Of a stretch of DNA of 64,000 nt, positions 21,837-55,709 are shown one piece after another. Location of the stretch: assembly GCF_041248615.1 (NCBI RefSeq), contig NZ_CP158426.1; one strand, written 5' to 3'. Under the pieces are notes generated by a model. That model was not told the origin of the DNA. It saw only the letters and a program-made list of their open reading frames with translations, and did no database searches. The DNA is from Escherichia coli. GTDB taxonomy: Bacteria > Pseudomonadota > Gammaproteobacteria > Enterobacterales > Enterobacteriaceae. Every line of letters begins with the position of its first letter. Positions within the stretch are counted from its first letter, which is position 1. A program made the translations under genes and the position numbers.

Positions 21837-29802
<7,966 letters not shown>

Positions 29803-30114
29803 GCTTACCTTCCCTGAACGAGCTAACATAAATGCGCCCTTTCTAGCACAGCGAAAAAAAGTAAATCCTGATAGCAATATGATTGAAAATTAATAACTTT
29901 TCGTTAAGCAGTTTTGGGTGTGAGTTGCAAGAGGGGAGACTACTGAATTACTCAAGTTTTATAATCGAGGGGAAAATGGTGATGGCGTCCATAGCAAAAC
30001 GCCCTCAACCATAAAGGTCGAGGGCGCTTAAGATGTCAAAAACCCGCTATCCGTTAAAAAGCAATGCTCAACTAAGGTCAGTGACATTGCGCTAAAAAGC
30101 GAATTTTTAGAATT

Positions 30115-30479: not shown

Positions 30480-31712
<1,233 letters not shown>

Positions 31713-32389
31713 GTACCACTTGGTCTGGAGCTAGTGAGCAGAATGTATGACAGTGCTGTATGGCATCTATACAGAATTACGGGCAAAACGATGCCGCGAA
31801 ATGCGGATAGACAGGCTGCTTGTCAGTTATCGGAAGGCGCTTGCGAAAGTTACTGCGCCTGCAATTCCCGCTCTGTACAATCTGAAAAAGGGTAGGGCTT
31901 TGAATGTATGTGAGAATTATAACCCATCAATGCAATCTCCTGCGATTACAGCATCAAAATCAGCATCTTTGATAGCCTCAAAGCAAGCCCCTAATACGGG
32001 GCATGGCTATGGATTGATAAATGATATCAAAACGTATCAGCTAGTTTCCACGGTTAGAGAAGATGGCTATTATACTTCAGAAACGGAACAACAGCGTTCC
32101 GTTTCTGACGGACTGATTCTTCCGTAAATTCAGGTGTAAATCGTGGTGTGCCCATACGCTCCTCCTATGCTCAAACTATAGGGCAGGATCGTCTACCGGG
32201 GTGGGGTCAGTCCACCAATGACTGAGAGGTGTCTGTTAAACCCGTGGCGATTCAGACATTACTCTTCCTATGTACACTGGAGTAGATTGAATAATCATAT
32301 AATAATCAATCGGTTGAAATCATTTAGGGCTTTTGTATTAATAGTATTGAGATGGTTTGGTCATGGTTCCAGTTCATAAGGAAATAGTT

Positions 32390-33442
32390 ATGGGAATTAG
32401 TGTTCGAGTCTTGCAAGCAAATCATGGTGATTGTTTCTTAGTTAGTTATAAGAGCTCAGATAGTGTTTACAACTTGCTAATTGATGGTGGTAATAGCGCC
32501 ACATTTATGTTTGGGGCTCAAGGGCGCTACAGTGGTGAGCTTAAATGTGTACTCGATGATTTGAAAAAAGAAGGTCAGAAAATTGACTTGGTTATCTTAA
32601 CCCATATAGATGATGATCATATCGGTGGTTTGCTTAGGGCTTTTGAAACACCAGGTTATCTATGCCAAATGGCTTCTTCTATCTGGTTTAATTCTTCAAG
32701 ATTTATCACCAAACATTTTAAGGTTGATGAAATTTCAGACAATGATGTCTGTCTTCAAAGTAACTCAACGCAGACAAGTGCTAGGCAAGGGAAGAAACTG
32801 GAAAACTTACTTGATGAAATCAATTGCGAACGGCAACCCATAGTTATTGCGGGGCAGAAGTTTACAAGGGGTCCGTTCACATTCACGATCTTATCCCCTG
32901 AAGAAGATAATCTACGTAGCCTTCTTCATAAGTGGCCAGATGAGCCAGATCCGGTTACGACATCCGGTGCTTCAAGGGATTATGGAATGAAATTTGAGGA
33001 TATTTTGTCTAATGATAAATTCCAGAGTGATCAATCTGTTTATAATGGTAGCTCAATTGCTTTCATCCTTGAAGCTGATGGTAAGGCTATGCTCTTTTTG
33101 GGCGATTCACATGATGAAAATATTGTCCGTAATTTACGATCTCTTGGTTTTAATGAAGGTAACAAGCTCAAACTCGACCTCGTGAAAATTTCTCATCATG
33201 GTAGCCAGTATAATACTAGCCCTGAATTTTTGTCGCTCATAGATGCGCAAAACTTCATTATATCCACTAATGGGAGTAAGCACGGACTTCCTGATAAGAG
33301 AACTATTGCACGGATTTTATCTTCAGGAGAAGGCAAAATCGGCTTCAATTATTCGCACATTATCCAGGAGATGCTTCACGAAAATGAGGTTCCATTGTAC
33401 TCTTCTCGCCTGGTAGCATTAAATGGAGAAATTAGGCTATAA
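32390..33442 (+). CDS. MBL-fold metallo-hydrolase (first gene of candidate defence operon)
   Basis: Motifs HGDCFLV...IDGG, LVILTHIDDDHIGG and KISHHGS are typical of the metallo-beta-lactamase fold; AGGAAA RBS before ATG 32390; stop overlaps next gene. Confidence 0.7.
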   Translation: MGISVRVLQANHGDCFLVSYKSSDSVYNLLIDGGNSATFMFGAQGRYSGELKCVLDDLKKEGQKIDLVILTHIDDDHIGGLLRAFETPGYLCQMASSIWFNSSRFITKHFKVDEISDNDVCLQSNSTQTSARQGKKLENLLDEINCERQPIVIAGQKFTRGPFTFTILSPEEDNLRSLLHKWPDEPDPVTTSGASRDYGMKFEDILSNDKFQSDQSVYNGSSIAFILEADGKAMLFLGDSHDENIVRNLRSLGFNEGNKLKLDLVKISHHGSQYNTSPEFLSLIDAQNFIISTNGSKHGLPDKRTIARILSSGEGKIGFNYSHIIQEMLHENEVPLYSSRLVALNGEIRL

Positions 33443-34727
33443 AATGACCGCTTCAAATTTGATGGCTTCTAACGCAGTGATCGTGAACGAGGGCAGTGGT
33501 GTTCTTGTTAATGCGATGACTCAAGATTATTCATACGTACTCACAGCAAAACATGTGTTAGCGAAATCAGGTAGTCAAAATATCGTTACTAATCAATATG
33601 GTAACAGTCTTAGAGTGCTTGATGTATTGGTGGGTCAGGAAGAGCATTGCGACTGTGCTGTAATCAAAATTGAATATGTACCAACTGTTGCTCAGCAGTC
33701 CTTCCCTGCAATAGCATTACCCAATTCGGCTTTGCTAAAGTTTGTTGGTTTTCCGGGAACCGAGAGACTAAGCGCTACCCCGCTGAAAATCTATGATGGG
33801 CATGTAACAGATGTAAGGGAGGGGCTGATTAGCTTCACGATAGAAGGCAGTCCCTCAAAAACCGCAATCGATGGAATGTCTGGCGGTGGAATGTATTACA
33901 TAGTTAATGAACATCCCCTCCTTGTTGGTGTAGAATTTGGGATGGACAGTATTCGTCAAGATCTACAATATGGACGTATACAATGTAAAAGTTTAATTGT
34001 TTTTGAAGAGATAATTAATTTAAACAGTGCTGCTCCAATGGTTCCCGCTTATTTGGAGTGTTTTTCACGCTTAAAAGAATATATCTTCGATTTTAATGTT
34101 GTTGATAAAAATAGAGTTCTGAATCTGAAAAACGCATTAAATATTTTTGCAGATGAACTTATAGACAAAGGTATGCCACCACCATTTGAATTAATGTCCA
34201 AATACAAAACTGATTTGTTAGTAGGTCCATATCAAGTTGACGATGTTAAAAATAAAGAATTATGGGTTGCATATTTTGAATTTCTGATAATTTGCGCAAT
34301 TCTTGATAATGTAAGTATTGCCAATAGTTCTTATATAGAAAGTTTAGAGCGGCGTAGGAGAATTCTTTATACTCCGGATGGAAGTAATTGGGTCGGAAAG
34401 CTTGATGTAATCTTAAAAGTTGCTCGAAAGTTATTAGATAAAGATGGCATAGTAATTGTGGCATCTCCAGAAAATGGAGCCGAATTATTACCGGATGATT
34501 TTGAAGTCGATAGGGTTATAAGGAATATTGCGCGAATCGCTAATTCAGGTCCACTTGCTCCTATCGATCAAGTTGAAAAAGAGATGTATAAGAGTTTTGT
34601 ATTAACGCATCTTGAAGGGCTGAGAAAAAAATGTGTTATAAACAAAGAGAGAATGTATGCAGAAGTTGAAGCTGGCTTAGACCAACTTCAGACGTTTAAG
34701 GAAAGCTTTAATGAATTTATTAAATAA
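33423..34727 (+). CDS. Trypsin-like (S1-type) serine protease with C-terminal domain of unknown function (LmuA-like effector?)
   Basis: Candidate catalytic triad in order His (VLTAKHV), Asp (DCAVIKIE), Ser (DGMSGGGMYY); about 230 further residues without recognised motif; start may be 33423 or 33444; overlaps both neighbours. Confidence 0.7.
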   Translation: MEKLGYKMTASNLMASNAVIVNEGSGVLVNAMTQDYSYVLTAKHVLAKSGSQNIVTNQYGNSLRVLDVLVGQEEHCDCAVIKIEYVPTVAQQSFPAIALPNSALLKFVGFPGTERLSATPLKIYDGHVTDVREGLISFTIEGSPSKTAIDGMSGGGMYYIVNEHPLLVGVEFGMDSIRQDLQYGRIQCKSLIVFEEIINLNSAAPMVPAYLECFSRLKEYIFDFNVVDKNRVLNLKNALNIFADELIDKGMPPPFELMSKYKTDLLVGPYQVDDVKNKELWVAYFEFLIICAILDNVSIANSSYIESLERRRRILYTPDGSNWVGKLDVILKVARKLLDKDGIVIVASPENGAELLPDDFEVDRVIRNIARIANSGPLAPIDQVEKEMYKSFVLTHLEGLRKKCVINKERMYAEVEAGLDQLQTFKESFNEFIK

Positions 34728-35262
34728 AGAATTTGATTTGGAATTTCTTAAATCTAGATTTTCTGATGCAGATTTCTATTTTTTTGTTTCTAATGATGAC
34801 TCATCTTATATTTCATGCGTAGCATGCTATTGTGAGAGCGCTAATTACGTGGTTGCGAATTGGACAGCGATTCAGAATTATTTATCTGCTTACTACCAAC
34901 CGAAGGATGAATTAGCTCTTTGGAATATATATTTAGTTTTCTTTTGTTCCGAAAAATTACCGATTTGGGATAAGTACCTTATAGATAATGATAAGTATTC
35001 TGTCAGAAAATTAATTATTGACGGGTTAACTACTCTGCCAAGTATTTCCGAAACTGTAACTTTTCTGAACAATCATCTGCTAGGCGCAGACCTAGAATTA
35101 ACTGAAATAGAGGAGAAGAAGGAGATAGAGTTATCATTAATTGAGTATATAAGTGGAACTCCTTTAGATTCAAAGGTTGAGTCGAGAGATGAGCGTATGA
35201 GCAGAATTGATAAAATTATTAATCTAGTGAGTTCAAATAAAAATGAAAATAAAAAAAGTTGA
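34711..35262 (+). CDS. Small protein (183 aa) of unknown function, translationally coupled (middle component?)
   Basis: ORF overlaps upstream gene by 17 nt and downstream gene by 20 nt; AT-rich; no recognised motif. Confidence 0.5.
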   Translation: MNLLNKEFDLEFLKSRFSDADFYFFVSNDDSSYISCVACYCESANYVVANWTAIQNYLSAYYQPKDELALWNIYLVFFCSEKLPIWDKYLIDNDKYSVRKLIIDGLTTLPSISETVTFLNNHLLGADLELTEIEEKKEIELSLIEYISGTPLDSKVESRDERMSRIDKIINLVSSNKNENKKS

Positions 35263-38200
35263 AATAGAAGGCTTTCGAGCATACAGATTCAAGGAAGATG
35301 GTACTTTCGATTTTACAAATAAAGATGATACGCCATCCAATTTTGTAGCGATCTATGCACCCAATGGCTTTGGAAAAAGTTCATTCTATGATGCGGTTGA
35401 ATGGGCTATTACTCATAATTTAGATAGATTTGCGGGTGAATATAATAAAAAAAATTATGAGCAAGCTGCCAGGAGCACGAAAGAGGACGGTGTTGCACAA
35501 AAAATACTACGTAATAAAGATGTACCAGACAATATTCCTACTCGTGTAACAGTTTTCACTACTTTACCAACTCCATTCGAACAAAGTTTAGGAACAGTTC
35601 GTTCTGATTCTAGAGATATAAGAATCGGCGAGAATAAAAATAAAATCAATGGCTATTTTAGAAAAGTGGTTCTTAGTCAAGATGAAATAGACCGTTTTTT
35701 AAAAGAAGCAAAGCCGCAAGATCGTTATAAGATGTTTATGGAGAGTTTTGGAGGTGAATGGGAAAAGGCGAGACAAGAGCTAACTATACTATTGAATGAC
35801 AATAAGGCGGTTTTGTTAAATCTCGAAAAAAACAAAAATGAACTTCAGGAACAACTAGATCAGCCTGTTGATGCGTCAACATTCATACAATTTAATAAAA
35901 TAGCATCTGAACTTGTAGCAGAAGGTGAAAGTTTACCATTAGTAGATGAAACAACTATAGTTAATACACAGCATGAGCTTTTGGAAAAAATAATCACAAG
36001 AAGTCACGAAATAAATTTTTCCTTAAACAAGAAAAAAATATTGAGAGATTCGATTTCTGAGTATATTTTAAAATTTCCTGATATCAGTTTTCGTACAACC
36101 CAGATTATCGAGAAAAAGAATAGACTAGAAAAAATAAATAAAGGGATAGAAGATGTCGGTCGTTATAAGACATTTCAGTCTACTCTTGAAAAACTGACTA
36201 TCGAAAAGAAAAAGATAAGTCAGAGCTTAAATTTTATAGAAGAATTAGATGGTTTATCCCAAGAGTTTTTAAGCTTGGAATTTAACTTGGAATCAGCTCG
36301 AAAGAAACATAGAGAGATTTCATATAATTATGAAAATGAAAAAACTCTCCTTGATAATTTATTCCAAACAAGAAACCAAAATGATGCTGATTTATCTTCA
36401 ATTGACAAGCGATGCTTATCTATACGTTCTACGTTAGAAAACGCTACGGTTACTTATTCTAATATATCTAATATACAAAATAAAATTTTAAATATAGTTT
36501 CTACGCAAACAGAATTAGAGCACAAACTTAATCAAGTTAGATCCGAATACCAAAAAAACAAATCCGAATTAAACAAAGTATCAGATTTAACAATAACCGC
36601 CAAATCATTACTTTCATCAGACTTAAGTCTAATTGATTTATCTTCAGATTTATTAAAAGAACTAAACAACTTATCGCAAGAACTAAATATATTGGTCCTA
36701 CATGATCAATCAATTCATAACACACAAGAATCTCTTTCTGCACAAATGGGAGTTCACGAACGTCTAATTGCATCGGGCCTTGAGTACTTAAGTTTATGGC
36801 CGACTAATATATGTCCTTTATGTCACAAGCCGCATGACTCTGAGTCCTCTCTTAGAGAACAAGTAACAAATACTGACGTAATATCCATGCTTAGTAAAGA
36901 GAATGCAGCTAAGCTCGAGATATCCTCAAAACGGCGGTCAGAGTTAAATGGCAAGATAGAATCCATCGTACAGAAAGCCCTTGAAATTAAAATGAGTAAA
37001 CTTGAGGTATTAAGTAAAAAGGTCAATCAACAAGGAAATGAGATACATCGAGAAGAACAGCACTATACAGCTCTTTTAGCAGAAAAACAGTCTGTCCAAA
37101 ATCAGTTAAACGAGTTGCAGAAGGCTGTAGCTGGACTAACTAAAGATGAATTATTAGCTCGCTTAGATGCTGAACTTAAAGAATTAGAGGCCAAGAAAAA
37201 TGAAGTGATAAAAAACAAGCTGACCTTGACGAAAAATATTAACGTTAAAAGAACGTTGATTACAGAGTTAAGTGGGGCGATCAATTTACTTAATACGCAA
37301 ATTCATGAAATGATGTCATCATCTAACTATTTAAAAACAAAAGCTTACTCTGAAGAAAATGGCTTGTCATCGGAGTTTTTGAAAGAACATTATGATGATA
37401 AACGCCATTTTTACCTTAAAAATATAAATGGACTCAATTTTGAGATTAATAATATTACCAGCCAATTAAATGATCTTCAGAAAGCTATGATAGCCGATGA
37501 AATGTGGCTGGATTATGAAGAAATGATTTCTGAAAAAGAGAATTTCGAGGATTATATTTCTAAATCAGAAGCGGTTTTACAATCTTATTCATCATTATTA
37601 AAGCAGCATTTTGAACTACCAAAATATGAATCTTTAGTTGAATTGAAAGATTTCCTGATAAGCTCACTTGATAAAGAAACTAGGCTTTATAATGGTCTAG
37701 AGGAACGGCTTGGAAAATATAATTTATTATCAGAACTTTTGAAAACAGCAGAGTCGTTTGTAAAAAGTATTAAGTTGCAGAATGATATTAATGAAACCTT
37801 AGGTCTTATAGAAATAAGAAAAGAAGTTGATTTAGCTCTGACTAAGGAACGAAATCAAGTAATAGAGGAACTTAGAAACTTGATAAAATCTTTCTTTTAT
37901 GAGGAACTCATTAATTCTATTTATAAGAGAATAGATCCACATCCATCACTTAAGAAAGTGGTGTTTCGCCCAGATTTTGACTCATCAGATAAACCTGGTC
38001 TTAATATAGTTGTCAGTGATGAAAAAGGTGATATGGTATCTCCAATATTATTCTTTAGTGCAGCGCAATTAAATATTCTAAGCCTTAGTGTCTTTTTAGC
38101 AAGTGCTTTGCATGCAAAAGATGATAATGGAAATGTAATTGATGTGATTATGATTGATGATCCAATTCAATCAATGGATTCAATTAATATCCTATCCACA

Positions 38201-38380
38201 ATTGATCTTCTTAGAAGTATTACCGTTAGATTCAACAAACAAATAATAATATCAACACATGACGACAATTTCTTTGGCTTGCTCCAACGTAAAATCCCTT
38301 CGGAAATATTGGGTGCCAAGTTTCTTAAATTGGAGAAATTTGGGGTTGTAGTGCCTGTTGATGATTTAAATAATACATGA
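35243..38380 (+). CDS. Rad50/SbcC/SMC-like ABC ATPase with central CxxC zinc hook (LmuB-like?)
   Basis: N-terminal Walker A (VAIYAPNGFGKSSFYD), Q-loop (VLSQDEI), long coiled-coil middle with CPLC at residues 524-527 of 1045 (nt 36812..36823), C-terminal signature-like FSAAQ, Walker B VIMIDDP, D-loop SMD and H-loop ISTHD. Confidence 0.8.
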   Translation: MKIKKVEIEGFRAYRFKEDGTFDFTNKDDTPSNFVAIYAPNGFGKSSFYDAVEWAITHNLDRFAGEYNKKNYEQAARSTKEDGVAQKILRNKDVPDNIPTRVTVFTTLPTPFEQSLGTVRSDSRDIRIGENKNKINGYFRKVVLSQDEIDRFLKEAKPQDRYKMFMESFGGEWEKARQELTILLNDNKAVLLNLEKNKNELQEQLDQPVDASTFIQFNKIASELVAEGESLPLVDETTIVNTQHELLEKIITRSHEINFSLNKKKILRDSISEYILKFPDISFRTTQIIEKKNRLEKINKGIEDVGRYKTFQSTLEKLTIEKKKISQSLNFIEELDGLSQEFLSLEFNLESARKKHREISYNYENEKTLLDNLFQTRNQNDADLSSIDKRCLSIRSTLENATVTYSNISNIQNKILNIVSTQTELEHKLNQVRSEYQKNKSELNKVSDLTITAKSLLSSDLSLIDLSSDLLKELNNLSQELNILVLHDQSIHNTQESLSAQMGVHERLIASGLEYLSLWPTNICPLCHKPHDSESSLREQVTNTDVISMLSKENAAKLEISSKRRSELNGKIESIVQKALEIKMSKLEVLSKKVNQQGNEIHREEQHYTALLAEKQSVQNQLNELQKAVAGLTKDELLARLDAELKELEAKKNEVIKNKLTLTKNINVKRTLITELSGAINLLNTQIHEMMSSSNYLKTKAYSEENGLSSEFLKEHYDDKRHFYLKNINGLNFEINNITSQLNDLQKAMIADEMWLDYEEMISEKENFEDYISKSEAVLQSYSSLLKQHFELPKYESLVELKDFLISSLDKETRLYNGLEERLGKYNLLSELLKTAESFVKSIKLQNDINETLGLIEIRKEVDLALTKERNQVIEELRNLIKSFFYEELINSIYKRIDPHPSLKKVVFRPDFDSSDKPGLNIVVSDEKGDMVSPILFFSAAQLNILSLSVFLASALHAKDDNGNVIDVIMIDDPIQSMDSINILSTIDLLRSITVRFNKQIIISTHDDNFFGLLQRKIPSEILGAKFLKLEKFGVVVPVDDLNNT

Positions 38381-38406
38381 TTTATTTAGTGTGTTAACCA
38401 TAAAAT

Positions 38407-38440
38407 AAGAACTGGGCCAGTGACGACCCAGTTCTTATTT
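38407..38440 (+). terminator. Rho-independent terminator after the four-gene operon
   Basis: 10-bp perfect stem aagaactggg / cccagttctt with 10-nt loop followed by attt; 27 nt after the stop at 38380. Confidence 0.55.
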
Positions 38441-39696
38441 ATAGGGGAACCTATTTTTATCGCAATAAATTAAGAGCGAAGATATGGTGAAAATTGTTAA
38501 AATATGAATTTTTTTAATTTTTTATCTAAAGCCCCTGTTTTCATTATCGTATAAATCAATCTGGACGATTTGTTCTTCAGGTGCAAGGGTATCCGCAAAC
38601 TAGCGCAGGCTATCACCGCCTATAAGCTCCAGAATATGATCAAGTCCATGCCCTCCTGACAACCCAATCGCCTGTAATGACCATTCAGGAATGATTTGCT
38701 CTTTTGATGACTCAACCACAAATGTATCGAGCTCAGTCTTTGCTTAGAGCAGAATTTGAGCCCAAGACTTCCACTCGTATCATCGTAGGTCAGCGTTTCT
38801 CAGAAAATAACCCATGTAACCACGGCATCCGTCTCCGAATGTTATCCTAGAAACAATATTGAGGGGGGAATGTAGAATCATAACCTCTGAATTAACGTAG
38901 ATTAAATCATTCGATCTAAATCAGAGCATTCATAGTGATGGTACACTCAGCACCAGACAAAGATCTCTAGGGGTTTGTTCTAATAAACATGGCCCTCATT
39001 CCTTCTGGTGAAATTCGGAATCTGATTGCGTAGGATAATTACATCCAGGAATCGGGCTAGCATTACAGCCCCCTAAGGGTGTTGTTTGCAACGGTTCATG
39101 TTTGTCTGAGTAACTATATTCCTGAATGTGTTGCTCCGAATTTACGGATTGCCTTGCAGAAAAGGGCTGTTCTGGCGTTGTGCTTTGAAAGGCGTACACC
39201 TGAGGAGCACAGAGCCACAGGAAGGGCAGTAGGGTGCAGCGGGCGAGTACATTCATATATTCTCCAGACAGAATTCATACCAATTATATGATATGCCAGA
39301 TTGACTCAATAAAGCGTTAACGAAGAACGAAAATATAAGACCAGGTATAGAACTCGACATGCCGATAGTCGCCGGGAAATATCGTGGCCAGATTTTTTGT
39401 TAATGCTCATAGTCAGGCAACAAGGGTCGCTGCAGTAATGACTTCTGAACCTTATAACAAATTTCGGCACGACACTTTTATCATCTTTTTCATAATAAAA
39501 CCTCCGTTTTTGTTTTAATCGTCCTCCGGATGTTTCGGACATTGGATGCCCGTAACATCCGGAGGCTGCGGGTGCGGGCGGCAAAGAGCCCGTGAAGATG
39601 CCCGGAATGAATGGCAAACCCCCTCAGGAATGAAGAAAATACGCAATCAATGCTGGGGTGCTTTGTTGATCACTTTTACTGAAGTACTTTTCTATC

Positions 39697-40416
39697 TCAG
39701 AAGTAGGTTGTCCAGAAAGAGGAAACTGGCATCGCCAGTACCAATGCAGGAAGCATACTGGCTACCGGGAAGACCTTGATACCGGAAATACGCAGGCCGG
39801 TCGCCACCATTAGAACGCCACCCACAGCTGAAAAGTCGGCCTGCATGGCAGGCGTGGTCAGGGGCAATATATATATCGCGCTGTAGGCGAGTGCTAACTG
39901 AATGATAAGCTGGGGGAAAGCGACTAATGCCACGGCGTAACCCAGGGTTGTGGCAAAAATGAGGGCGGTCAGCAAATCCAGGAACGCTTTCGCGATAAGG
40001 ATACTCGAGTCCCCGGTCATGCCTTCGTGCATCGCACCAAAAATACCGGTGCCACTGGCACAAAAAAGGACGATGATCGCCACATAGTTTTGTAAAAACT
40101 GCGCCTGTGAGTCTTTGTCTCCGGGATCGCTTTTCACGACGAGCTCCACCAACCCACGGGCTTGTCCGCCCAGGTGGCTTATCCCTTTTTCCAGATAGCA
40201 GAGCTCGCCCACCAGTGTGCCGAGAAGGACCGATAGAACCATGACGGGCATATGGCTGACACTTGTCACAAGGACGATCCCCATACACAGGGAGGCAGCA
40301 CCAAAAATGAGCGGCATTGAGGTACGTAACCTTTCAGGTAGACGTGAGCTAATGATGGCTCCTGCCATCCCGCCGATCACGACGGCAGAGCCGTTGAACC
40401 ATGGGCCTGTAATCAT
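39697..40416 (-). CDS. Multi-pass inner-membrane protein (DUF554-like?), co-operonic with UbiX/UbiD-like genes
   Basis: 239-aa very hydrophobic ORF; start overlaps stop of upstream UbiX-like gene (40413..40416). Confidence 0.55.
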   Translation of the reverse strand: MITGPWFNGSAVVIGGMAGAIISSRLPERLRTSMPLIFGAASLCMGIVLVTSVSHMPVMVLSVLLGTLVGELCYLEKGISHLGGQARGLVELVVKSDPGDKDSQAQFLQNYVAIIVLFCASGTGIFGAMHEGMTGDSSILIAKAFLDLLTALIFATTLGYAVALVAFPQLIIQLALAYSAIYILPLTTPAMQADFSAVGGVLMVATGLRISGIKVFPVASMLPALVLAMPVSSFWTTYF

Positions 40417-41027
40417 AGCGATTTACTCCTGTTATTCAGGTTGGGAGTTTCACCCCAGCGCGGCAATGTGTCGCAATCAAGGTCGAGTAAACTCAGCGCC
40501 CGCGCAACACTATGAGCGAAGATGTTCTCAGTACTTGCAGGGCGTGCATACCAGGCAGGTACGGGTGGAAAAATGATGCCGCCGGTTTCGGTAACCTGAA
40601 GCATGTTACGAAGGTGCCCGGTATGCAGCGGCGTTTCCCGTACCATCAGAACCAGCCTCCGGCGCTCTTTCAGGGTCACATCGGCTGCCCGCACCAGCAA
40701 ACTGTTGGTTAAGCCCGCCGCAACAGCGGCGAGGGTGTTCATAGAGCAGGGGACAATCAACATCCCGGATGCCCTGAACGAACCGCTGGCGATGTCGGCT
40801 GCAATATCATCAAAGGGATAAATTACATCAGCCAGCTTATGAACGTCGTCTTCTGACAAAGTGGTTTCCAGACTGCGGGTCAGATGAGCGGCAGGAGAAA
40901 TCACAACGTGACTTTCCACGTTAAGTTGTCGCAGATAACGCAGGGCCTGCACTCCATATAAAAAACCGGATGCACCACTGATCCCAATGATGACGCGCTT
41001 GCGAGGAGAACATTCAGATGTCGACAT
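40413..41027 (-). CDS. UbiX/Pad1-family flavin prenyltransferase (prenyl-FMN synthase)
   Basis: 204-aa ORF with flavoprotein signature (VIIGISGASG...PCSMNTLAAVAAGLTNSLLVRAADVTLKERRRLVLMVRETPLH). Confidence 0.85.
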   Translation of the reverse strand: MSTSECSPRKRVIIGISGASGFLYGVQALRYLRQLNVESHVVISPAAHLTRSLETTLSEDDVHKLADVIYPFDDIAADIASGSFRASGMLIVPCSMNTLAAVAAGLTNSLLVRAADVTLKERRRLVLMVRETPLHTGHLRNMLQVTETGGIIFPPVPAWYARPASTENIFAHSVARALSLLDLDCDTLPRWGETPNLNNRSKSL

Positions 41028-41037
41028 TATGGCGTCC

Positions 41038-42522
41038 TCAGTACTTGAAGTTATCCGGGAGGAAACGACTGATCTCGACCTCCATGAATTCGCTGCGGCG
41101 AAACTGGCCTTTCATCGTGAACGGAACGGTACAGTCGAAAATAGTTTTACAGGCGATCCCGTGGTCGCGGACGGAGTAACTAAAAGCCGGGTCAGAGGAC
41201 GGATCGAGGGGATGGCACCTTACGCCGGGTATGAACACCGTGCTGATATCCCCCTGATAGCGTGTCGTCATTGCCCATATCACGTCATTGAGATCGAAAA
41301 TATCCACATCGTCATCAACCAGAATCACATGCTTGAGTTCCGAGAATGCGGAGAAGGCCAGAAGAGCCGCCTGGCGCTGACGACCTTCATCGTTTGGCAG
41401 ACGTTTTTTCACCTGCAATACGGCAAGATATTTTCCGGTCCCGGGTGACGGGCAGTGAACATTTTGCACAAAGCCGGGAAGGGCGCGCTCCACCAGTTGC
41501 AGAATACTGGCCTCGGTGGGGATCCCTGCCATATTGGTATGCTCGTCACTTGGACCAATGCAGGTCTGTAGAATTGGGTGACGGCGGTGGGTGATGGCTT
41601 TCACTTTTATCACTGGCACCATTTGCTGTGCCTGTCCGGTATAGCCGGGGAATTCCGGCATGGCTTTACCACTGTTGGTATTTTGATCCTCCCTGACCCG
41701 ATAGTTAGGAATGAGTTCCCCCTCGATAACGACTTCGGCGTTCGCAATGGCCCGGGCATTCACGGTCAGACACTGGCACAGCTCAACAGGCTGTTTACGC
41801 AAGCTCCCTGCCACTGACAGTTCGTCAAAACCAAGTGGAGTTGTGGGCGGTTCGAAGCAGGCACCGATTTCAATGGCTGGGTCAACACCAATGCTGATCG
41901 AGATGGGAAGTGGGGCCCCATCTTCCTCTGCTTTCTGACGGAACAAATCCAGATGCCGACCGGGAACGAAGTACATGGATATTTCATCCCTGTTTTGCAC
42001 GCACAGTCGGTGAATAGTGATGTCATGCTCGCCGGTATGTGGATCGGCGGCGTAGCACATACCGAGAGTGAAGTAAGGACCGGCATCCTCCGGCGTATTC
42101 GTGGGTGCTGGCAGGATATTGAGGATACTGAAATCCGGATCGGATGCCAGATGGACTACTTCCTGACAGACGGCATTTTCCTGCGGAATAACGACAGGAC
42201 TTATCGGGGTGCTTACCGCGTCTTTCAGTAAAAAGGCCAGCTTATCGGGTGTGGTATCCAGTAGCCGGGCCACGCGTTTTCGCGAGGCGAGAAGACCTAT
42301 CAGCACTCGCATATCGGTATAGCCTTTAATCCGGTTAAAGAGCATGGCTGGACCGATACGAGTCGGACGCATGACCGTACCGTGTGCCCCAATGTAGCGG
42401 TACACCCCTGACAGTTCTGCACTTGGATCAACGGGTTCATCGGTTTCGATAAGCTCATCATCAAACTTGCGCAGTACGGCCAGCGCACTGCGTAGGTCAG
42501 TCACTTTTTGTGTTTGAGACAT
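41038..42522 (-). CDS. UbiD-family (prenyl-FMN-dependent) decarboxylase
   Basis: 494-aa ORF with UbiD-family architecture; immediately upstream of the UbiX-like partner. Confidence 0.85.
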   Translation of the reverse strand: MSQTQKVTDLRSALAVLRKFDDELIETDEPVDPSAELSGVYRYIGAHGTVMRPTRIGPAMLFNRIKGYTDMRVLIGLLASRKRVARLLDTTPDKLAFLLKDAVSTPISPVVIPQENAVCQEVVHLASDPDFSILNILPAPTNTPEDAGPYFTLGMCYAADPHTGEHDITIHRLCVQNRDEISMYFVPGRHLDLFRQKAEEDGAPLPISISIGVDPAIEIGACFEPPTTPLGFDELSVAGSLRKQPVELCQCLTVNARAIANAEVVIEGELIPNYRVREDQNTNSGKAMPEFPGYTGQAQQMVPVIKVKAITHRRHPILQTCIGPSDEHTNMAGIPTEASILQLVERALPGFVQNVHCPSPGTGKYLAVLQVKKRLPNDEGRQRQAALLAFSAFSELKHVILVDDDVDIFDLNDVIWAMTTRYQGDISTVFIPGVRCHPLDPSSDPAFSYSVRDHGIACKTIFDCTVPFTMKGQFRRSEFMEVEISRFLPDNFKY

Positions 42523-42698
42523 TACGTTTTCCTCAGTAAGTCGCCGGGAGACAGCATGCCCGGTGTGCTTTTATCTTCATCCTGCAGGCAATCACAGGAC
42601 GAGCCGTTACATCACTGACAGTATGTGAGGCAACATAAATCCCCGTCTAATCACATTAACGACGTTTTTAATGTGGGATTGTTATCGAAAAATAGTGA

Positions 42699-43592
42699 TT
42701 GGAGGAACGTGTGGACTATCGGTATTTGCATGCATTTGTGGTGCTTGCCAGAGAACTGCATTTTGGAAAAGCCGCACTGCGGCTCAACATCACGCAGCCA
42801 GCCTTAAGCCGTCAGATTAGAGTGCTGGAAGATCAGCTTGGCATGGTGCTATTTACGCGTGATCGTCGTCATGTGGCGCTGACTGTGGAAGGAACTCAGC
42901 TTGCAGCGGAGGCGCGGAGCGCCGTCAGTCATTACGAAAAAATGCTGAGCCGTGCGAGTAGCCTTCGAAAAGGCTATAAAGGACAACTCATACTGGGTTA
43001 TGTCGGATCTTCCATTCTTGATCCCGCCCTGACACGGTTAATCACCTGTTTTCGCGAGACTAAACCGGATGTTGAGATTGTTATTGAGGAGCACAACGTT
43101 GACGAACAGCTCACCCTCCTGCTCGACCATCAACTGGATATGGGGCTGCTCCGATCGCCTGTTCCGCATTTTGCCAACCTGGACTACGTGGATATCGCCA
43201 CCAGGTCACTCATCGCCGCAGTACCGCACACGCATCCGCAGGCAGGAGTCGGTAAAATAGAGCTGGAGACGTTGTCCGGGGATACATTTATGATCCAGAA
43301 AGATCCGCCCGGGGTCGGGCTAGGCTGGTCTGCATTACATGCCTGTGAGATGGCCAGTTTTGTCCCACCCAAAATCTATTTTACTCGCGATGTTGCGGTG
43401 GCTATTGGCATGGTGTCGATGGGAATAGGAGTTACGCTGGTGCCAGAAACCCAGCGTTCTGTAACGTTGCCTAATGTCTGCTACTGCCTGCTGCACGATC
43501 CCGAGGTCACAACGACCTTAACGCTTTGCTGGCCGAAATTCAGGAAAAGCAGGGAATTGATAGAGTTTGTACGCTCTTTAACGCTTGGTTGA
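42699..43592 (+). CDS. LysR-family transcriptional regulator, divergent from the decarboxylase operon
   Basis: N-terminal LysR HTH (FGKAALRLNITQPALSRQIRVLEDQLG) plus substrate-binding domain; divergent arrangement typical of LysR regulators. Confidence 0.8.
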   Translation: MEERVDYRYLHAFVVLARELHFGKAALRLNITQPALSRQIRVLEDQLGMVLFTRDRRHVALTVEGTQLAAEARSAVSHYEKMLSRASSLRKGYKGQLILGYVGSSILDPALTRLITCFRETKPDVEIVIEEHNVDEQLTLLLDHQLDMGLLRSPVPHFANLDYVDIATRSLIAAVPHTHPQAGVGKIELETLSGDTFMIQKDPPGVGLGWSALHACEMASFVPPKIYFTRDVAVAIGMVSMGIGVTLVPETQRSVTLPNVCYCLLHDPEVTTTLTLCWPKFRKSRELIEFVRSLTLG

Positions 43593-44133
43593 ATCTTAAG
43601 AAGCTGCAGTTGAGTCATAGCCAGCGATCAAAATTGAGAAGACAAAACCGGGGAGAGGTGCCCGCAGTTTCTGCCCCAGCTCCCATCTTCAGGAAGATGT
43701 GTTTCAGGAATGCATTCGTGATGCTGGGGATAGCGGCAAGACGATTTTCTCATCGGGTAACTCTGCGGTATCGGAACAGTTGACGACGGCAGGGTGGTGA
43801 ATGGGAACCTCAGGATGAAGCGCTCGGGCAAGAGGGATGGACTGTGCTGAAGAGAACACTGACAGAACGAGCATGATGCTTGCAAAAAGGGGACTCTGGA
43901 TATTCATTGTTTATCTCCTGATGATATTCATCGCTCCAGAGAATACGCTTGCCACTCTTTTTATTTGTTTTCCTGAATTAAAAATGCCCGGTTTTATGTG
44001 GTTCTTCCGTAAACGTTATTACATTAATTAACATCTAGTTTCTATCTCCGAAATGAGGTAAAAAAATAATTGTCGTGGTTTTTATCAAACAAATTTACCG
44101 GCAGCTCAGATCCGAACTAATACCTGGAAATTC

Positions 44134-44182
44134 AAACCCCAAACCCCAAACCCCAAACCCCAAACACCAAACCCCAAACACC
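44134..44182. repeat. Heptanucleotide microsatellite (AAACCCC/AAACACC) x7
   Basis: Direct reading: aaacccc x4, aaacacc, aaacccc, aaacacc; opposite strand is G-rich (GGGGTTT)n. Confidence 0.95.
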
Positions 44183-44412
44183 ATTTCACCGCTGGCGTGT
44201 AAGGGGCTCTATATCTGTTTATTCAGGGATAGTTTTTTCTCCCGTGTGATTTCCGTTCATGTATCTGCTTCCGGTTAATCGTTTCCCAGCACAACCCGTC
44301 CCGCAAGGGTAAATGGCACGCCTGCTGCGCCCTTGCGGGATGGAACGATGCCGGGAAAGCGAACCGTCAGGCGATACGAAGACGAAAATCACACCACTGA
44401 CGGAGAAAAAAA

Positions 44413-45357
44413 ATGACTATGTCCCTGCATACCAAGATAAGTGCCCCTAACACGACAGCGGCGACCAGCGTATCCTCGCTGGATCTGTCAGGCTCCTCAA
44501 AAACGAAATGTTCAACAGCCAGAACCGATATTTATCAGACTGTTACCGACAGCATAATTGCGGCGCTGGAAACCGGAGTAAAACCTTGGGTGTGTCCTTG
44601 GCAGCGAGCTCCCGGTATGTCCGGTTTACCGTCCAATTACGCCACTGGTAAGGCTTACAGCGGAATGAATATCATGTTGCTTTGGTGCAGCGCGTCAAAA
44701 CAGGGATTCTGTGATTCACGCTGGATGACCTACAAACAGGCAAAAGCGGTAGGTGGGCAGGTGCGCAAGGGAGAACACGGCACTACCGCGATTTTCTATA
44801 CCACGCTGGAAAAGGAAAATGATAACGGAGAAACTGACTATATTCCTATGCTGAAAGCATTCACTGTGTTTAATGTTGAACAAATTGACGGTTTACTCCT
44901 GAGTGATGATGCCGTTTTTCCGGCAGAGATCTTTGAGCCATTACCACGTGCAGAAGCACTTTTTCGTAGTAGCGGTGCAACCATTATTGAAAAAGGACAG
45001 AATGCTTTTTTTACACCATCAACCGACGAAATTCGCTTACCTGAACGGTATCTTTTTATTGATGCTGCTAATTTCTACGCAACCGGCCTGCATGAGCTCG
45101 TTCACTGGAGTGGGGCAAAAAGTCGGCTGAACCGTGAAATGAAAGGGAAATTTGGCAGCGAGGGGTATGCGTTTGAAGAGTTGATCGCTGAGCTGGGGAG
45201 CGCATTCCTGATGGCGGATCTGGGGATAGTTGGAGAAGTTCTGCATGACAGTTATATCGCTTCCTGGCTTAAAGCACTGAGGAATGATAAACGCTATATT
45301 TTCAAGGCCGCCAGCGCGGCATCGAAAGCACATCGCTATTTGATGGATAAAAGCTGA
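44413..45357 (+). CDS. ArdC-like anti-restriction protein (N-terminal ssDNA-binding domain plus HExxH metalloprotease-like domain)
   Basis: 314-aa ORF; HELVHW motif in the C-terminal half; architecture and size fit ArdC/DUF1738 proteins of conjugative elements. Confidence 0.6.
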   Translation: MTMSLHTKISAPNTTAATSVSSLDLSGSSKTKCSTARTDIYQTVTDSIIAALETGVKPWVCPWQRAPGMSGLPSNYATGKAYSGMNIMLLWCSASKQGFCDSRWMTYKQAKAVGGQVRKGEHGTTAIFYTTLEKENDNGETDYIPMLKAFTVFNVEQIDGLLLSDDAVFPAEIFEPLPRAEALFRSSGATIIEKGQNAFFTPSTDEIRLPERYLFIDAANFYATGLHELVHWSGAKSRLNREMKGKFGSEGYAFEELIAELGSAFLMADLGIVGEVLHDSYIASWLKALRNDKRYIFKAASAASKAHRYLMDKS

Positions 45358-46200
45358 GTAGCAAAAAGCCGCAAAGGAATGCGGCTTAATGGGCTGGGGG
45401 TACTAAACCAGTAAAGGTTTAGTCAGTAATATTAGTGAAGCAGAGCAAGTATCGAACAGTCATATTCCTGTAGTGGTATTAAGACAACCTTAAGAAGGGA
45501 CTGATGTATAGCTACTCTTGTATACCCATCCATGGAAAATTCGGTTGTATTGCCGGGTTGATATGTGCAGGTTGGTCCCGACCCAAGAAGTTTTTACTGT
45601 GAAAATTGTCAAACTATATCAATGTGGTAACAGCTTCTCTTGTCCCTTTGGTTATTTCAAATTGGACCGGGCTATCTGTTGCAACACGGTTGCTCTGCTT
45701 GAAACAGAGTTAACATATGCAACATCAGATACTTTGAGTTTGATCAGATCATAGCCTCGTAGCTTACTGTCCAAGGTCATATTGAACAGAGTTAAATCGC
45801 GCATTTTACCTTCCATTTCAAGCCTGATTCGGATCCCCCCTGATATGAGATATCTGAAGTGGTCTTTTTGGTCAGTGATACTTACAATACGGTCTTTGTC
45901 CCACGGTGACGTGTTCATACTCAAAGCTCCTGTAATGTTGGAGATTTGAGCATGGTTATCCCTCATGAGCGAGGAACGGACAATGTCCCTTGCGCGATCC
46001 AAGATTGATTTTTCTTATTAAATTAAGCTATGGCTGACCTACGAACGATAGGCAAAATGCTCCTAAAGCTACGGCTTATGACAGTAAAAAACATATTGAT
46101 AAAAATCTGAGCTGGTTTAGAATGCTATAATGGAATAATTATTTATTTTCGGCCTTCAGTTTGATCATTTTTAGAAATCACCCTTTTGAAGGAATCTACA

Positions 46201-46995
46201 ATGGAATCAGAAGAAACGAAAGAAGAGAGTTATCAACAGCGTTCGGAGTTTATCAGAAAAATAATTCAACAGCCTGTTGAGGGTGTCATATCTTCATGCA
46301 CTATACCAAAAAAAATAATTCAATTTTGGGATTCATCCAATACTATCCCTAATGATGTCAGACATTGCATGAAATCATGGCGTATCTTAGAACCTTTTGG
46401 GTATGAGTATTTACTATATGATTTCGTTAGCGCCCAAGAATTTATTAAACATAATTTGGGTGAAACATACAGTGAAGCTTTTGCCAAGTGTACTCATCCT
46501 GCTATGCAATCAGATTATTTCCGATTATGTTATATCTCGGTAAACGGGGGATTTTATGTTGACACTGATGATGTTTATCTGGGTAGTGAGATAAGTAGTT
46601 TTTTCACGGATGATAAGTTAAAAATACAACCTTTATGCTACGATATTTCCACCGATTCTATGATTCCACCAGAAATTTTTACAAAGGAAAATACTTATGA
46701 AGAATCTTGGATTTTTTATTTCAACAACAACCCGTTAATTGCTCCGCCTCATCATGTTATCATTGATAAGGCACTAGAGCAATCCACATACTTACTTAAT
46801 AAATCAAGCTATCCTCTCACAGATATTCAGTCAACAACTGGTCCTGGTAATCTATCTAAATCTATTTTCTCGTGTCGCGAGGAAATAGATTTATTATCCC
46901 AGATTACGGTAGTATCAAACTGGCAAGATATTGCAGAAACTAAGTGGGATTTAGAATACAGAGCTGATTCTAGAAATTGGCGCTTGATGAATTAA
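46201..46995 (+). CDS. DXD-motif glycosyltransferase (Gly_transf_sug-like)
   Basis: QFWDS...AMQSDYFRLCYISVNGGFYVDTDDV motif pattern; GAAGGAA RBS before ATG 46201 (track start 46186 is TTG); AT-rich. Confidence 0.55.
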   Translation: MESEETKEESYQQRSEFIRKIIQQPVEGVISSCTIPKKIIQFWDSSNTIPNDVRHCMKSWRILEPFGYEYLLYDFVSAQEFIKHNLGETYSEAFAKCTHPAMQSDYFRLCYISVNGGFYVDTDDVYLGSEISSFFTDDKLKIQPLCYDISTDSMIPPEIFTKENTYEESWIFYFNNNPLIAPPHHVIIDKALEQSTYLLNKSSYPLTDIQSTTGPGNLSKSIFSCREEIDLLSQITVVSNWQDIAETKWDLEYRADSRNWRLMN

Positions 46996-47010
46996 CATGG
47001 ATTTTTAATA

Positions 47011-49212
47011 ATGAACATTAAAAATAATTTGAAAGGTATTAGCCGTTTTTTTTATTCTTTTTACTTACGCTCTCGGTTACTTCTCCCAGCGCAAAAATCA
47101 TCGACCTTTAATACATTAAATCAGAATGAAGGCGTTATTAGCAGGATTTACGCTATAAACTTAGAACGGGAAGCGATTAGATGGGCAGATTTAAATAAAG
47201 AACTGGGTAAAATACTAGATAAATCTAATAAAAAATTAACGAGCCAATTAACCAGATTCTCTGCTATAAACGCCAAAGAAATGTCAGACATTCTCAATGA
47301 GGAAGAGGTTATTCCTTATTATACTTTAGCAGACCAGTTGTACGTTGACCCTCAACCAAAAATCTTACCCGATAAATTTGATCTCGATGTCCCTATAAAA
47401 ATGAGTAAAGCGGAAATTGCTGTAGCATTATCGCATCTAAATGTTATTAGGCTTGTTGCAGAAGGTTCTGATGCATATGCTTTAGTGCTTGAGGATGACG
47501 TGTATTTTGAAAGAGATTTTGCCAAAACCTTAGATGCTGCTTGGTCTGAAATGATTCAAGCTGACAGATCTTCACCTGGTTTTGATATCTTATATTTGTC
47601 ATTTAAAGAGGTTATGAATGGCGCGAAAAAGAAAATTATTTCGAAAAGCATATTTAAACCAGAGCGAGGGTTATGGTATTTTTCAGGATATGTATTATCT
47701 AAGAAAGGAGCAAATAAAATCCTCTCACTCCTCCCAACTTATGGACCAATTGACTTATGGATAAATCATCAATTTGAGAAACTCGATGTGAGGGCAGTAT
47801 ATAAGTCGATCATTTCTCAGAGGTTGGATTTTAACTCTTCAAATTCCTATTCAATATTACCTACCTTAGTGAAGATTGGTATTATTGACAATGAAAAAGC
47901 TTCCAGTTTTAATGAACTTCCAAATTATTGGCCTGTTTTTGCATTTGGTGTAAGTGGTTCGGGTATTTCTTCTTTGGGTATGGCACTATCAATGCTTGGC
48001 TATAAGTGTTGTAGTGATATTGATAGACTTCCCAATGCAGACTTAAAAAATCTATTAAGTAATTCAGAGCAGAATGAATTCAATGCTTATGTAAATGTTG
48101 GCTGTCTCAGTAAGTATATCGGCATATTAAAAAAACAATATCCAAAAGCAAAATTTATAATTACCACGAGTGAATCAAAAGAAATCGAAGATGTTATTTT
48201 TAATATAATTGAGGAGATCGTTGATACTGACTATGTTGTATTGCATTCAGATGAAAAAAACAAATGGAAGGTTATATGTGAATACCTTCAATGCCCACCA
48301 CCTATTTCAGCGTACCCAGAAATGGCTGACATTATTCCTAGGCAGATTATAGATATCACCAGTGCAGCACAAATCAATAATTCAGAAATTAACATGATAC
48401 ATGACATTTCCCCTTGGATATTAGAAAGAAAGAATTTTTCAGGAAATGGTTTTTTTATAAAAGATAATCCGAAGAGAATTGAAAAAGAGCTTGCTGATTT
48501 CTTCATTAATGATTCACTACAAAATATTAATAATAACTATTGGGAAATTCGCGATGATACTTTCCCTGGAAATCTTGGACTGTTTCGACCTCAAAATGTG
48601 ATTCAAAATGATATTAGTGGTTTAGGTCTTGTAGTTAAGGAGGAACAGTTAGGCGTTAGAGAGTTTAGTGCTGCTGCGATTTCAAGTAGAATGAAGTTCC
48701 TATATGGCCGATTTGAAGTGTCCCTACGAGCGGCAAATGTTGCAGGGATAGTAACCGGCTTCTTTTTACATAGAGATTCGCCTCGTCAAGAAATCGATAT
48801 TGAGTTTGTTGGAAATCGATCTGATCATATGTTGATCAATGTTTTTTATAATCCTGGTGATGAAGGTGCAAAGTTTGATTATGGATATCGTGGTACACCA
48901 ACTCTTATTCCTTTAGGTTTTGATGCTTCTGAAGAGTTTCATGATTACATGATTGAATGGAGTCCTGATGAGATAAAATGGTTTGTGGATGGAGTTATGG
49001 TTTATCGTAGAGGAGTTTGGGGGCCTACACCTATACCTCATTTACCCATGACCCTTCATGCTAACACTTGGCCAACCCGTTCCAAGGAACTGGCGGGACG
49101 TCTCCACACGCGTTCCTTACCCTGTATCACTTATATTAGGAAAATATGTATTGATGCAACAATGGATGTTAATAATCCAAAATTAAATGACCAGACAGTA
49201 GTGGCTGGTTAA
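47011..49212 (+). CDS. Multidomain protein: N-terminal GT25-like glycosyltransferase, central P-loop-like region, C-terminal GH16-like domain
   Basis: N-terminal YAINLEREAIRWADL...LSHLNVIRL resembles family-25 LPS glycosyltransferases; C-terminal EIDIEFVG matches the GH16 ExDxxE catalytic motif; AT-rich. Confidence 0.5.
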   Translation: MNIKNNLKGISRFFYSFYLRSRLLLPAQKSSTFNTLNQNEGVISRIYAINLEREAIRWADLNKELGKILDKSNKKLTSQLTRFSAINAKEMSDILNEEEVIPYYTLADQLYVDPQPKILPDKFDLDVPIKMSKAEIAVALSHLNVIRLVAEGSDAYALVLEDDVYFERDFAKTLDAAWSEMIQADRSSPGFDILYLSFKEVMNGAKKKIISKSIFKPERGLWYFSGYVLSKKGANKILSLLPTYGPIDLWINHQFEKLDVRAVYKSIISQRLDFNSSNSYSILPTLVKIGIIDNEKASSFNELPNYWPVFAFGVSGSGISSLGMALSMLGYKCCSDIDRLPNADLKNLLSNSEQNEFNAYVNVGCLSKYIGILKKQYPKAKFIITTSESKEIEDVIFNIIEEIVDTDYVVLHSDEKNKWKVICEYLQCPPPISAYPEMADIIPRQIIDITSAAQINNSEINMIHDISPWILERKNFSGNGFFIKDNPKRIEKELADFFINDSLQNINNNYWEIRDDTFPGNLGLFRPQNVIQNDISGLGLVVKEEQLGVREFSAAAISSRMKFLYGRFEVSLRAANVAGIVTGFFLHRDSPRQEIDIEFVGNRSDHMLINVFYNPGDEGAKFDYGYRGTPTLIPLGFDASEEFHDYMIEWSPDEIKWFVDGVMVYRRGVWGPTPIPHLPMTLHANTWPTRSKELAGRLHTRSLPCITYIRKICIDATMDVNNPKLNDQTVVAG

Positions 49213-49490
49213 TCATTAGAGTGAAAAGTAAATATTAGTAAGGCACTGGTAAAAATGTAGACACTATCAGTGCCTTAGTAGTTATCCCTCTGGATGGTTT
49301 TTTGACAATAATTTCCGTTTCTGGCACGGAACGGACAGAAAGCAGGGCCACCAAATCTCTCACGAGCCAAAAACCTAAATTATGATCTGACAGATACATG
49401 TATCAATGAAACTGTCGCTGTCAGATCAATTACGCCTTACTATCTGAAAATTATTTGATTTTCTGCATCGTGCATTCAAATTAACAATGT

Positions 49491-50342: not shown

Positions 50343-50514
50343 TACGTATTCCTCGTTGATTGGTGTTAACTCTCTTTCTCGGGCCTGAATTCGCCTGTTA
50401 TATGGGCGACCAGGATAGCCTGATAGACTGGCCCCATGAATCTCCAGACAACCAATATCACTTAAATAAGTGATAGTCTTAATACTAGTTTTTAGACTAG
50501 TCATTGGAGAGCAG

Positions 50515-53098: not shown

Positions 53099-53106
53099 TT
53101 CCCCTT

Positions 53107-55633: not shown

Positions 55634-55709
55634 GCCAGAAATTAGCCAGCCTCAACCCCGCCGTCTGTCAGTCTGTGGCGCTGTGAGGCATAGTGTAATG
55701 TCCGGTGGT

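Follow-up and report, generated by a model that had tools for sequence, protein, structure and literature searches.

The operon and its boundaries

The window, by which we mean the whole 64,000-nucleotide stretch of the Escherichia coli contig NZ_CP158426.1 (assembly GCF_041248615.1) analysed here, contains a compact cassette of four plus-strand genes that we assign to the Lamassu family of defence systems. In order, these genes encode a metallo-β-lactamase (MBL)-fold hydrolase, a trypsin-like protease (LmuA), a small middle component (LmuC) and a long SbcC/Rad50-like ATPase (LmuB). The coordinates of the genes and of the associated non-coding features are collected in Table 1.

The four open reading frames (ORFs) listed for the window (32357-33442, 33423-34727, 34711-35262 and 35243-38380) all overlap, by 20, 17 and 20 nt from 5' to 3', and the G+C content of the operon is 34.5% compared with 46.8% for the whole window. 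This confirms the AT-rich plus-strand operon with overlapping genes that had been described in a first-pass annotation, made by a model from the sequence letters. The sliding G+C profile lies at 0.31-0.41 over 32-39 kb and at ~0.48-0.54 on both sides, where the adjoining core genes are. The start of the MBL gene is most likely ATG 32390, as this is the RefSeq start, is preceded by an AAGGA motif and is where the PADLOC profile alignment begins; TTG 32357, which opens the longest ORF, is a less likely start. With this correction the operon spans 32390-38380. Judging from the second E. coli variant of the cassette, the Vibrio orthologue and the PADLOC profile alignment, all of which begin at the equivalent position, lmuA may start at ATG 33444 (M8) instead of 33423. 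The four genes are tightly coupled whichever start codons hold.

The alignment of the 90%-identical E. coli variants to the window extends from 32273 to 38587 and includes the leader upstream of the MBL gene, which travels with the cassette. A promoter scan returned 31 promoter-like sites versus 27.4 expected by chance, none of which could be assigned to the operon. At the other end, a hairpin with a 14-bp stem begins 23 nt past the lmuB stop codon and has a folding energy of -25.4 kcal/mol (z = -4.35 against shuffles), followed by a weak U-tract, UUAUUUAU. The consensus terminator scan of the window, which accepts loops of 3-8 nt only, did not list this hairpin, probably because its loop is longer than this limit and its U-tract is weak. 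Thus, of the earlier claim that the operon ends in a hairpin terminator, the hairpin itself stands, and its action as a terminator is plausible from the sequence. The likeness to the second E. coli variant stops inside a gap of ~1.25 kb between the hairpin and the DUF554 gene (38441-39696) that has no annotated gene and contains short ORFs only.

Table 1 Features of the Lamassu cassette in the window.
Feature	Coordinates	Strand	Length	Basis
Upstream non-coding leader, travels with the cassette	32273-32389	+		Start of the alignment of 90%-identical E. coli variants
MBL-fold hydrolase of the hydrolase-protease pair, predicted gated pro-nuclease	32390-33442	+	350 aa	PADLOC, Pfam, conservation, AlphaFold2 (AF2) model
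LmuA, N-terminal trypsin-like serine protease with ABC-3C CTD4 docking/oligomerisation domain	33423-34727	+	434 aa	PADLOC, Pfam
LmuC, ABC-3C middle component 1	34711-35262	+	183 aa	PADLOC LmuC, Pfam MComp1
LmuB, long SbcC/Rad50-like ABC ATPase with coiled coil and central zinc hook	35243-38380	+	1045 aa	PADLOC, Pfam, motifs
Hairpin after lmuB, probable transcription terminator	38403-38440	+		14-bp stem, folding energy, shuffles

The four proteins

A profile search against PADLOC-DB v2 (2023), which holds full-length models for all four proteins, matched the MBL-fold protein to LmuA model PDLC03854 (7.6e-125, profile positions 2-344 of 345), the protease to LmuA model PDLC03855 (1.2e-122, 1-425 of 425), the 183-aa protein to LmuC model PDLC03873 (1.8e-44, 1-180 of 180) and the ATPase to LmuB model PDLC03865 (1.6e-269, 1-1006 of 1007). 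The Pfam matches are Lactamase_B in the MBL-fold protein, Trypsin_2 at residues 24-157 and CTD4 at residues 190-406 (8e-52) of LmuA, MComp1 (ABC-3C middle component 1) in LmuC, and AAA_23, SMC_N and AAA_13 in LmuB. The first-pass annotation had proposed looking for Lactamase_B, Trypsin_2 and AAA_23/SMC_N, which were found as expected, with CTD4 and MComp1 in addition. Its statement that the 183-aa protein carries no recognisable motif is superseded by the MComp1 and LmuC matches. The motifs that it quoted for the other proteins (HGDCFLV, THIDDDHIGG, SHHGS and a mid-protein CPLC) are all present in the translations.

The MBL-fold protein belongs to a large family, with 2896 relatives at E ≤ 1e-5 (90%-identity clusters) and 379 at E ≤ 1e-30 (50%-identity representatives), and it also matches the PADLOC RTasMBL and Avs1a models. 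Across 141 diverse representatives, little or no variation is seen at residues D14, H72xD74xD76H77, N219, D239 and H269H270. Its sequence is closest to the nuclease domains of ComEC, and the folds nearest to the AF2 model include, among the top matches, the ComEC MBL domain 9ic4 and phosphorylcholine esterase (Pce/CbpE). In profile alignments, the protein is ~70 residues longer than the ComEC MBL domains 9ic4 and 9vc6 between residues ~80 and ~215. The AF2 model has a predicted local distance difference test (pLDDT) score of 83.9, with exactly two segments below pLDDT 50, at residues 119-129 and 184-194. The model thus supports two disordered insertions, an arrangement that would be consistent with gating by a protease. 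In the clade of 40 close homologues (≥56% identity), I115 in the motif PEI-PENN is invariant and I205 in the motif EEIW is at least 90% conserved, which makes these two isoleucines candidate cut sites only.

In LmuA, residues H44, D77 and S153 form an S1-type H/D/S triad that is invariant in the five orthologues compared. The protein also matches the PADLOC models RT_UG9_large, at residues 22-240, and Avs2 (E 0.013), both in the protease region only. In LmuC, C36 and C39 are invariant and C41 is at least 90% conserved; its sequence lacks a D...(D/E)xK motif. The lmuC gene sits between lmuA and lmuB in every orthologous locus inspected, and the A-C-B order recurs in five loci besides the window.

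LmuB contains a Walker A motif (APNGFGKS, residues 39-46), a signature-like motif (FSAAQ, 938-942), a Walker B motif of the hhhhDD type (VIMIDD, 968-973) and an H-loop (STHD, 1004-1007). A single zinc hook, CPLC, occupies residues 524-527 of the 1045 and hence lies nearly mid-protein. All five motifs are invariant in the same five orthologues. Weak matches of LmuB were to Rad50, SMC and an SbcC-like PHROG. Sequence searches of the PDB returned no match for LmuA or LmuC and a Rad50 fragment only for LmuB, the nearest solved structure by sequence being Rad50 3qf7 (E about 1e-4).

A long Lamassu system of the Hydrolase_Protease subtype

The Lamassu and ABC-3C systems are handled as one superfamily in the literature, and RefSeq calls two of the four gene products 'ABC-three component system' proteins; we consider the RefSeq names 'ComEC/Rec2 family competence protein', for the MBL gene, and 'AAA family ATPase' misleading. 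The operon has the hallmarks of Lamassu, namely an LmuB ATPase with intact Walker A and B motifs, an LmuA effector with a C-terminal ABC-3C domain, and LmuC in an A-C-B operon. A separate MBL gene lies directly upstream of the protease-type lmuA in the overlapping or abutting arrangement of the Hydrolase_Protease subtype. A 1045-aa LmuB with an hhhhDD Walker B motif, a single CxxC and a long coiled coil places the operon in long Lamassu, and the two low-confidence loops in an otherwise confident MBL model agree with the insertions described for the gated pro-nuclease pair (Tuck et al. 2025).

Each of these traits has been described before. Hydrolase and protease LmuA variants were reported within the expanded Lamassu family by Millman et al., and the DefenseFinder subtype 'Lamassu-Hydrolase_Protease' (Lamassu-Fam) turns up in routine surveys. 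Haudiquet et al. (2025) divided Lamassu into short and long forms, the long LmuB being nearer to SbcC, with an hhhhDD Walker B motif and always one CxxC hook; by their account, the sole long system validated previously, that of B. cereus B4077, has Hydrolase-Protease effectors. Tuck et al. (2025, Science; PMC12799240) listed Lamassu among four systems that gained an MBL-nuclease/trypsin-protease gene pair. The subtype is therefore already known, given the full-length PADLOC-DB v2 models for all four proteins, the DefenseFinder name and these published descriptions.

As read from its sequence, the operon is genuine and of an already catalogued kind. The Lamassu/ABC-3C assignment and the role of each gene that the first-pass annotation had put forward agree with the PADLOC and Pfam matches and with the literature. 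Its further suggestion of an undescribed variant is not upheld: the upstream MBL gene is the mark of the Hydrolase_Protease subtype, and the SbcC-sized, hook-bearing ATPase is the mark of long Lamassu. Taken together, the four genes very probably constitute an intact Lamassu system against phages and plasmids that belongs to the Hydrolase_Protease subtype and to the long, SbcC-like form, that an integrative conjugative island at tRNA-Asn carries as cargo, and that is predicted to act by the release and proteolysis mechanism proposed below. As a discovery the locus carries little weight, for standard defence-finder tools would label it. Its practical value is that it offers, intact and native to E. 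coli, the Lamassu form that has been studied least, which combines a long LmuB, a protease and a pro-nuclease; it also places this form on record as cargo of a conjugative island at tRNA-Asn and sets the RefSeq product names right. The gap that concerns the structure of the long form, and a direct demonstration that proteolysis activates the nuclease of a Lamassu system, is one of the field and not a novelty of this locus.

The catalogued Lamassu-Hydrolase_Protease system (PDLC03854/03855/03873/03865) has the same four components in the same order as the present operon, with full-length profile matches, a single CxxC and the hhhhDD motif. The long system of B. cereus B4077 is reported to be experimentally validated; the present copy, compared with it by subtype description only, is a gammaproteobacterial orthologue on an E. 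coli island. A typical long LmuB is quoted at ~800 aa, whereas the present LmuB has 1045 aa and fits the 1007-position PADLOC model.

Short Lamassu systems with Cap4 (V. cholerae DdmABC and Salmonella enterica LmuACB) share with the operon the LmuA-LmuC-LmuB architecture and an SMC-like sensor. Their effector is held by its C-terminal domain and is activated by release and oligomerisation, leading to abortive infection, and the present system may be likened to them in this respect. They differ in that LmuB is about 600 aa, the nuclease is fused to LmuA and there is no separate MBL gene, and they are too dissimilar from the present proteins for any PDB sequence match.

Two further systems share the hydrolase-protease pair. 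In HamMAB, the nuclease-protease Hachiman of P. fluorescens, and in AVAST type 1 of E. piriflorinigrans (Avs1a with a protease-STAND protein), the nuclease carries two disordered insertions, as does the present MBL-fold protein. The sensor is a helicase (HamB) in Hachiman and a STAND NTPase in AVAST, in contrast to the SMC-like ATPase found here, and cleavage after isoleucine has been demonstrated for both, whereas the isoleucines of the present protein are candidates from sequence only. An anchor for the cut positions I118/I218 of HamM and I134/I234 of Avs1a was not obtained among the 150 relatives of the MBL-fold protein returned, as the ten classified were all of Lamassu type and none was of Avs1a or HamM type.

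SbcCD and Rad50-Mre11, the proposed evolutionary source of Lamassu, contain an ABC ATPase that has a long coiled coil and, at its centre, a CxxC zinc hook, and the length of SbcC is almost exactly that of the present LmuB. The operon differs from them in that it lacks an Mre11/SbcD nuclease partner, resides on a mobile element and pairs its ATPase with LmuA and LmuC.

Distribution, conservation and mobile context

The window is 100% identical to the chromosome of E. coli NRZ14408 (NZ_LT599825.1). The cassette is carried by an integrative conjugative island of ~51 kb, whose distal end it occupies; beyond the window, the island closes with a tyrosine integrase next to tRNA-Asn/mtfA. The proposal that the cassette is cargo of an integrative element is thus borne out. 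The whole cassette was found in 9 of the 5426 complete E. coli genomes, at about 100% identity in four of them and at about 90% in five. The 90% variant of a second E. coli lineage, FDAARGOS_1337, has the same four-gene order; its island, too, is at tRNA-Asn and carries an integrase.

Three homologues of about 60% identity, from Shewanella halifaxensis, Pseudomonas alliivorans and Vibrio harveyi, lie among the same four genes, which are identically ordered and almost unchanged in size. The co-occurrence check that the first-pass annotation had called for was therefore answered in Shewanella, Pseudomonas, Vibrio and the second E. coli lineage. Identity of the non-E. coli copies to the window ranges from 42 to 61%. 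An Acinetobacter plasmid carries only part of the cassette, LmuC and LmuB, at 42% identity, and no LmuB homologue was found in the phage genomes searched. By sequence comparison all four genes are under purifying selection, the ratio of nonsynonymous to synonymous substitution rates (dN/dS) between the two E. coli variants being 0.07 for the MBL gene, 0.09 for lmuA, 0.24 for lmuC and 0.19 for lmuB.

Two of these loci deserve separate mention. In strain 2018-06-4CC (NZ_AP021893.1), a copy of ISApl1 (IS30 family; locus L008, 5157-6131) splits the protease gene lmuA of an otherwise 99.9%-identical cassette. The pieces are annotated as 'S1 family peptidase' and 'ABC-three component system protein' fragments, and the locus is a natural knockout; it adjoins ldtA/cobT and not yeeJ. 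In Pseudomonas alliivorans (locus L003, 1253-4055), the cassette lies ~5 kb downstream of a CBASS-like pair (a SAVED-domain protein and a DncV-like nucleotidyltransferase) and also adjoins TraI_2/ArdC genes, a defence cluster on a conjugative element.

Proposed mechanism

The steps of the mechanism are drawn from published work on relatives, and the present computations contribute the components, motifs, gene order, selection and MBL insertions. In short Lamassu, the domain through which LmuA oligomerises is sequestered by LmuB2-LmuC, and the sensing of DNA ends frees LmuA, which forms the active oligomer. The MBL-fold protein of Hachiman and AVAST is a gated pro-nuclease whose active site is blocked by two disordered insertions. 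Its partner protease, activated by oligomerisation, cuts after a conserved isoleucine in each insertion and generates an indiscriminate DNase (Tuck et al., PMC12799240). The same authors proposed proteolytic unmasking for Lamassu too, having shown it for Hachiman and AVAST only.

By analogy, in an uninfected cell an LmuB dimer, with its zinc hook and ATPase heads, would together with LmuC keep LmuA monomeric and inactive by holding on to its C-terminal CTD4 domain. Once LmuB has sensed an invader by its DNA ends or replication intermediates, LmuA would be freed and would oligomerise via CTD4. Oligomerisation would activate the trypsin-like protease, which would then cut both gating loops of the MBL pro-nuclease. 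Presumably, the unmasked nuclease degrades DNA indiscriminately, with death or growth arrest of the infected cell, and the invader is contained by abortive infection. The outline in the first-pass annotation, an ATPase sensor that licenses the protease and/or hydrolase and gives abortive infection, agrees by analogy with the profile matches and with the literature on these relatives.

Several points weigh against this interpretation. The model of sequestration and oligomerisation has been solved for short, Cap4-type Lamassu only, and pro-nuclease activation has in the literature not been demonstrated for any Lamassu system; protection against phages or plasmids by the present locus is a prediction. 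PDB sequence searches of the four proteins gave no similar structure beyond fragments of Rad50 and ComEC, and the published likeness between long LmuC and SbcD's C-terminal domain, which is a structural one (Haudiquet et al. 2025), was not reproduced here. As to the candidate cut sites, I115 and I205 are not column-conserved in the 141 wider Lamassu-type MBL representatives, where the alignment of the loops is unreliable, and in the AF2 model I205 falls in a confidently modelled helix, outside the disordered loop.

Alternative interpretations

The cassette might mainly serve competition between mobile elements, eliminating plasmids for its host island as DdmABC does, in place of phage defence. 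This would fit its carriage by a conjugative island, by a conjugative element in Pseudomonas and, in part, by the Acinetobacter plasmid, the lack of homologues in phage genomes, and the reported action of the Lamassu system DdmABC against plasmids as well as phages. Such a role is compatible with phage defence, however, and the Lamassu systems tested, reportedly including a hydrolase-protease one, protect against phages; the sequence has no feature that separates a phage from a plasmid target. As the main function we regard it as unlikely, though it is the alternative that fares best.

There is a small chance that the long hydrolase-protease form works unlike the models extrapolated above. LmuC, for instance, may have a restriction-endonuclease fold in degenerate form and not descend from the C-terminal part of SbcD, its conserved CxxCxC strand may take part in sensing, or the protease may cut other substrates in addition to the MBL pro-nuclease. 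The present cassette, being native to E. coli, would lend itself well to work on these points.

Within Lamassu, the effector logic could also differ, the protease killing by cleavage of host or phage proteins and the MBL-fold enzyme being an accessory or acting on a non-DNA substrate. MBL-fold enzymes take many substrates, the top folds include phosphorylcholine esterase (Pce/CbpE) beside the ComEC nuclease domain, and the isoleucine cut sites cannot be mapped confidently on the MBL-fold protein. Against this, MBL and protease genes co-occur, and reportedly co-evolve, in Hachiman, AVAST, Lamassu and the defence-associated reverse transcriptase (DRT) systems. In both systems tested, Hachiman and AVAST, the MBL-fold protein acts as a DNase once the partner protease has activated it. 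The nearness of the present sequence to the ComEC nuclease domains and its invariant metal ligands likewise argue for a nuclease, and we hold the different effector logic to be improbable.

An undescribed defence system apart from Lamassu is very improbable. The MBL and protease module is common to AVAST type 1 and DRT, as the matches to Avs1a, RTasMBL, RT_UG9_large and Avs2 reflect, and a chimera would be possible in principle; yet the matches of all four proteins to Lamassu-specific models are full-length (1e-44 to 1e-269), DefenseFinder has a name for the subtype, three papers describe it, and the protease and ATPase proteins contain neither a STAND NTPase nor a reverse transcriptase. AVAST type 1 itself was rejected because the protease protein has no NTPase domain and the match of the MBL-fold protein to the NCBIfam Avs1a model, which accompanies the PADLOC one, reaches 207 bits against a cut-off of 420. 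DRT with RTasMBL (UG9) was rejected because none of the four proteins has a reverse transcriptase domain, the RT_UG9_large match being confined to the protease region.

Equally hard to credit is a reading as an SbcCD/Rad50-Mre11 paralogue with a housekeeping or DNA-repair role, or as a ComEC/Rec2 competence gene set: the SbcC-sized LmuB with its central zinc hook, its weak Rad50, SMC and SbcC-like PHROG matches and the RefSeq name of the MBL gene point that way, but the domains of the four proteins include no Mre11/SbcD phosphoesterase, the NCBIfam SMC score is 32.9 bits against a cut-off of 567, that for ComEC (TIGR00361) is 35.4 bits against 190, the 350-aa MBL-fold protein, which corresponds to the MBL domain only, matches just the C-terminal ~80 positions of the 663-position ComEC/Rec2 model, and the AT-rich cassette is mobile and rare.

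Neighbouring features of the window

Upstream of the cassette lie a frameshifted IS3-family transposase (30488-31640) and then a 183-bp fragment of the IS3 family (32072-32254), with matches in about 1000 E. coli genomes. An annotated ORF for a 126-aa 'hypothetical protein' (31747-32127) overlaps the start of this fragment and may not be a real gene. Farther out, at the chromosomal edge of the island, a large gene with Ig-like domains on the minus strand (21838-29803) is annotated as a frameshifted pseudogene, and only a remnant of it is present in FDAARGOS_1337. It is taken to be the adhesin gene yeeJ because of its position next to shiA.

Downstream, the island cargo occupies 39697-58700 of the window and continues beyond it (to 2133602 in NZ_LT599825.1). 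After the DUF554 gene come a decarboxylase pair, UbiD/UbiX, accompanied by a LysR regulator, then the anti-restriction gene ArdC, part of an integrase, genes of glycosyltransferase and glycosyl-hydrolase type, hchA in a further copy and a second IS3 element. The GT32 and GH16 genes lie in a second AT-rich block of the island at 46-49 kb. MobC and a coupling protein follow further downstream, together with a P-type type IV secretion system that is complete.

Two Rfam matches above the gathering score, an EFASI small RNA (8706-8833, minus strand, 100.8 bits) and a C4 antisense RNA (10267-10355, minus strand, 62.2 bits), lie in a small degraded islet by the tRNA-Asn at 5198-5273, which contains two frameshifted integrase genes and is located just upstream of an RHS core-protein gene.

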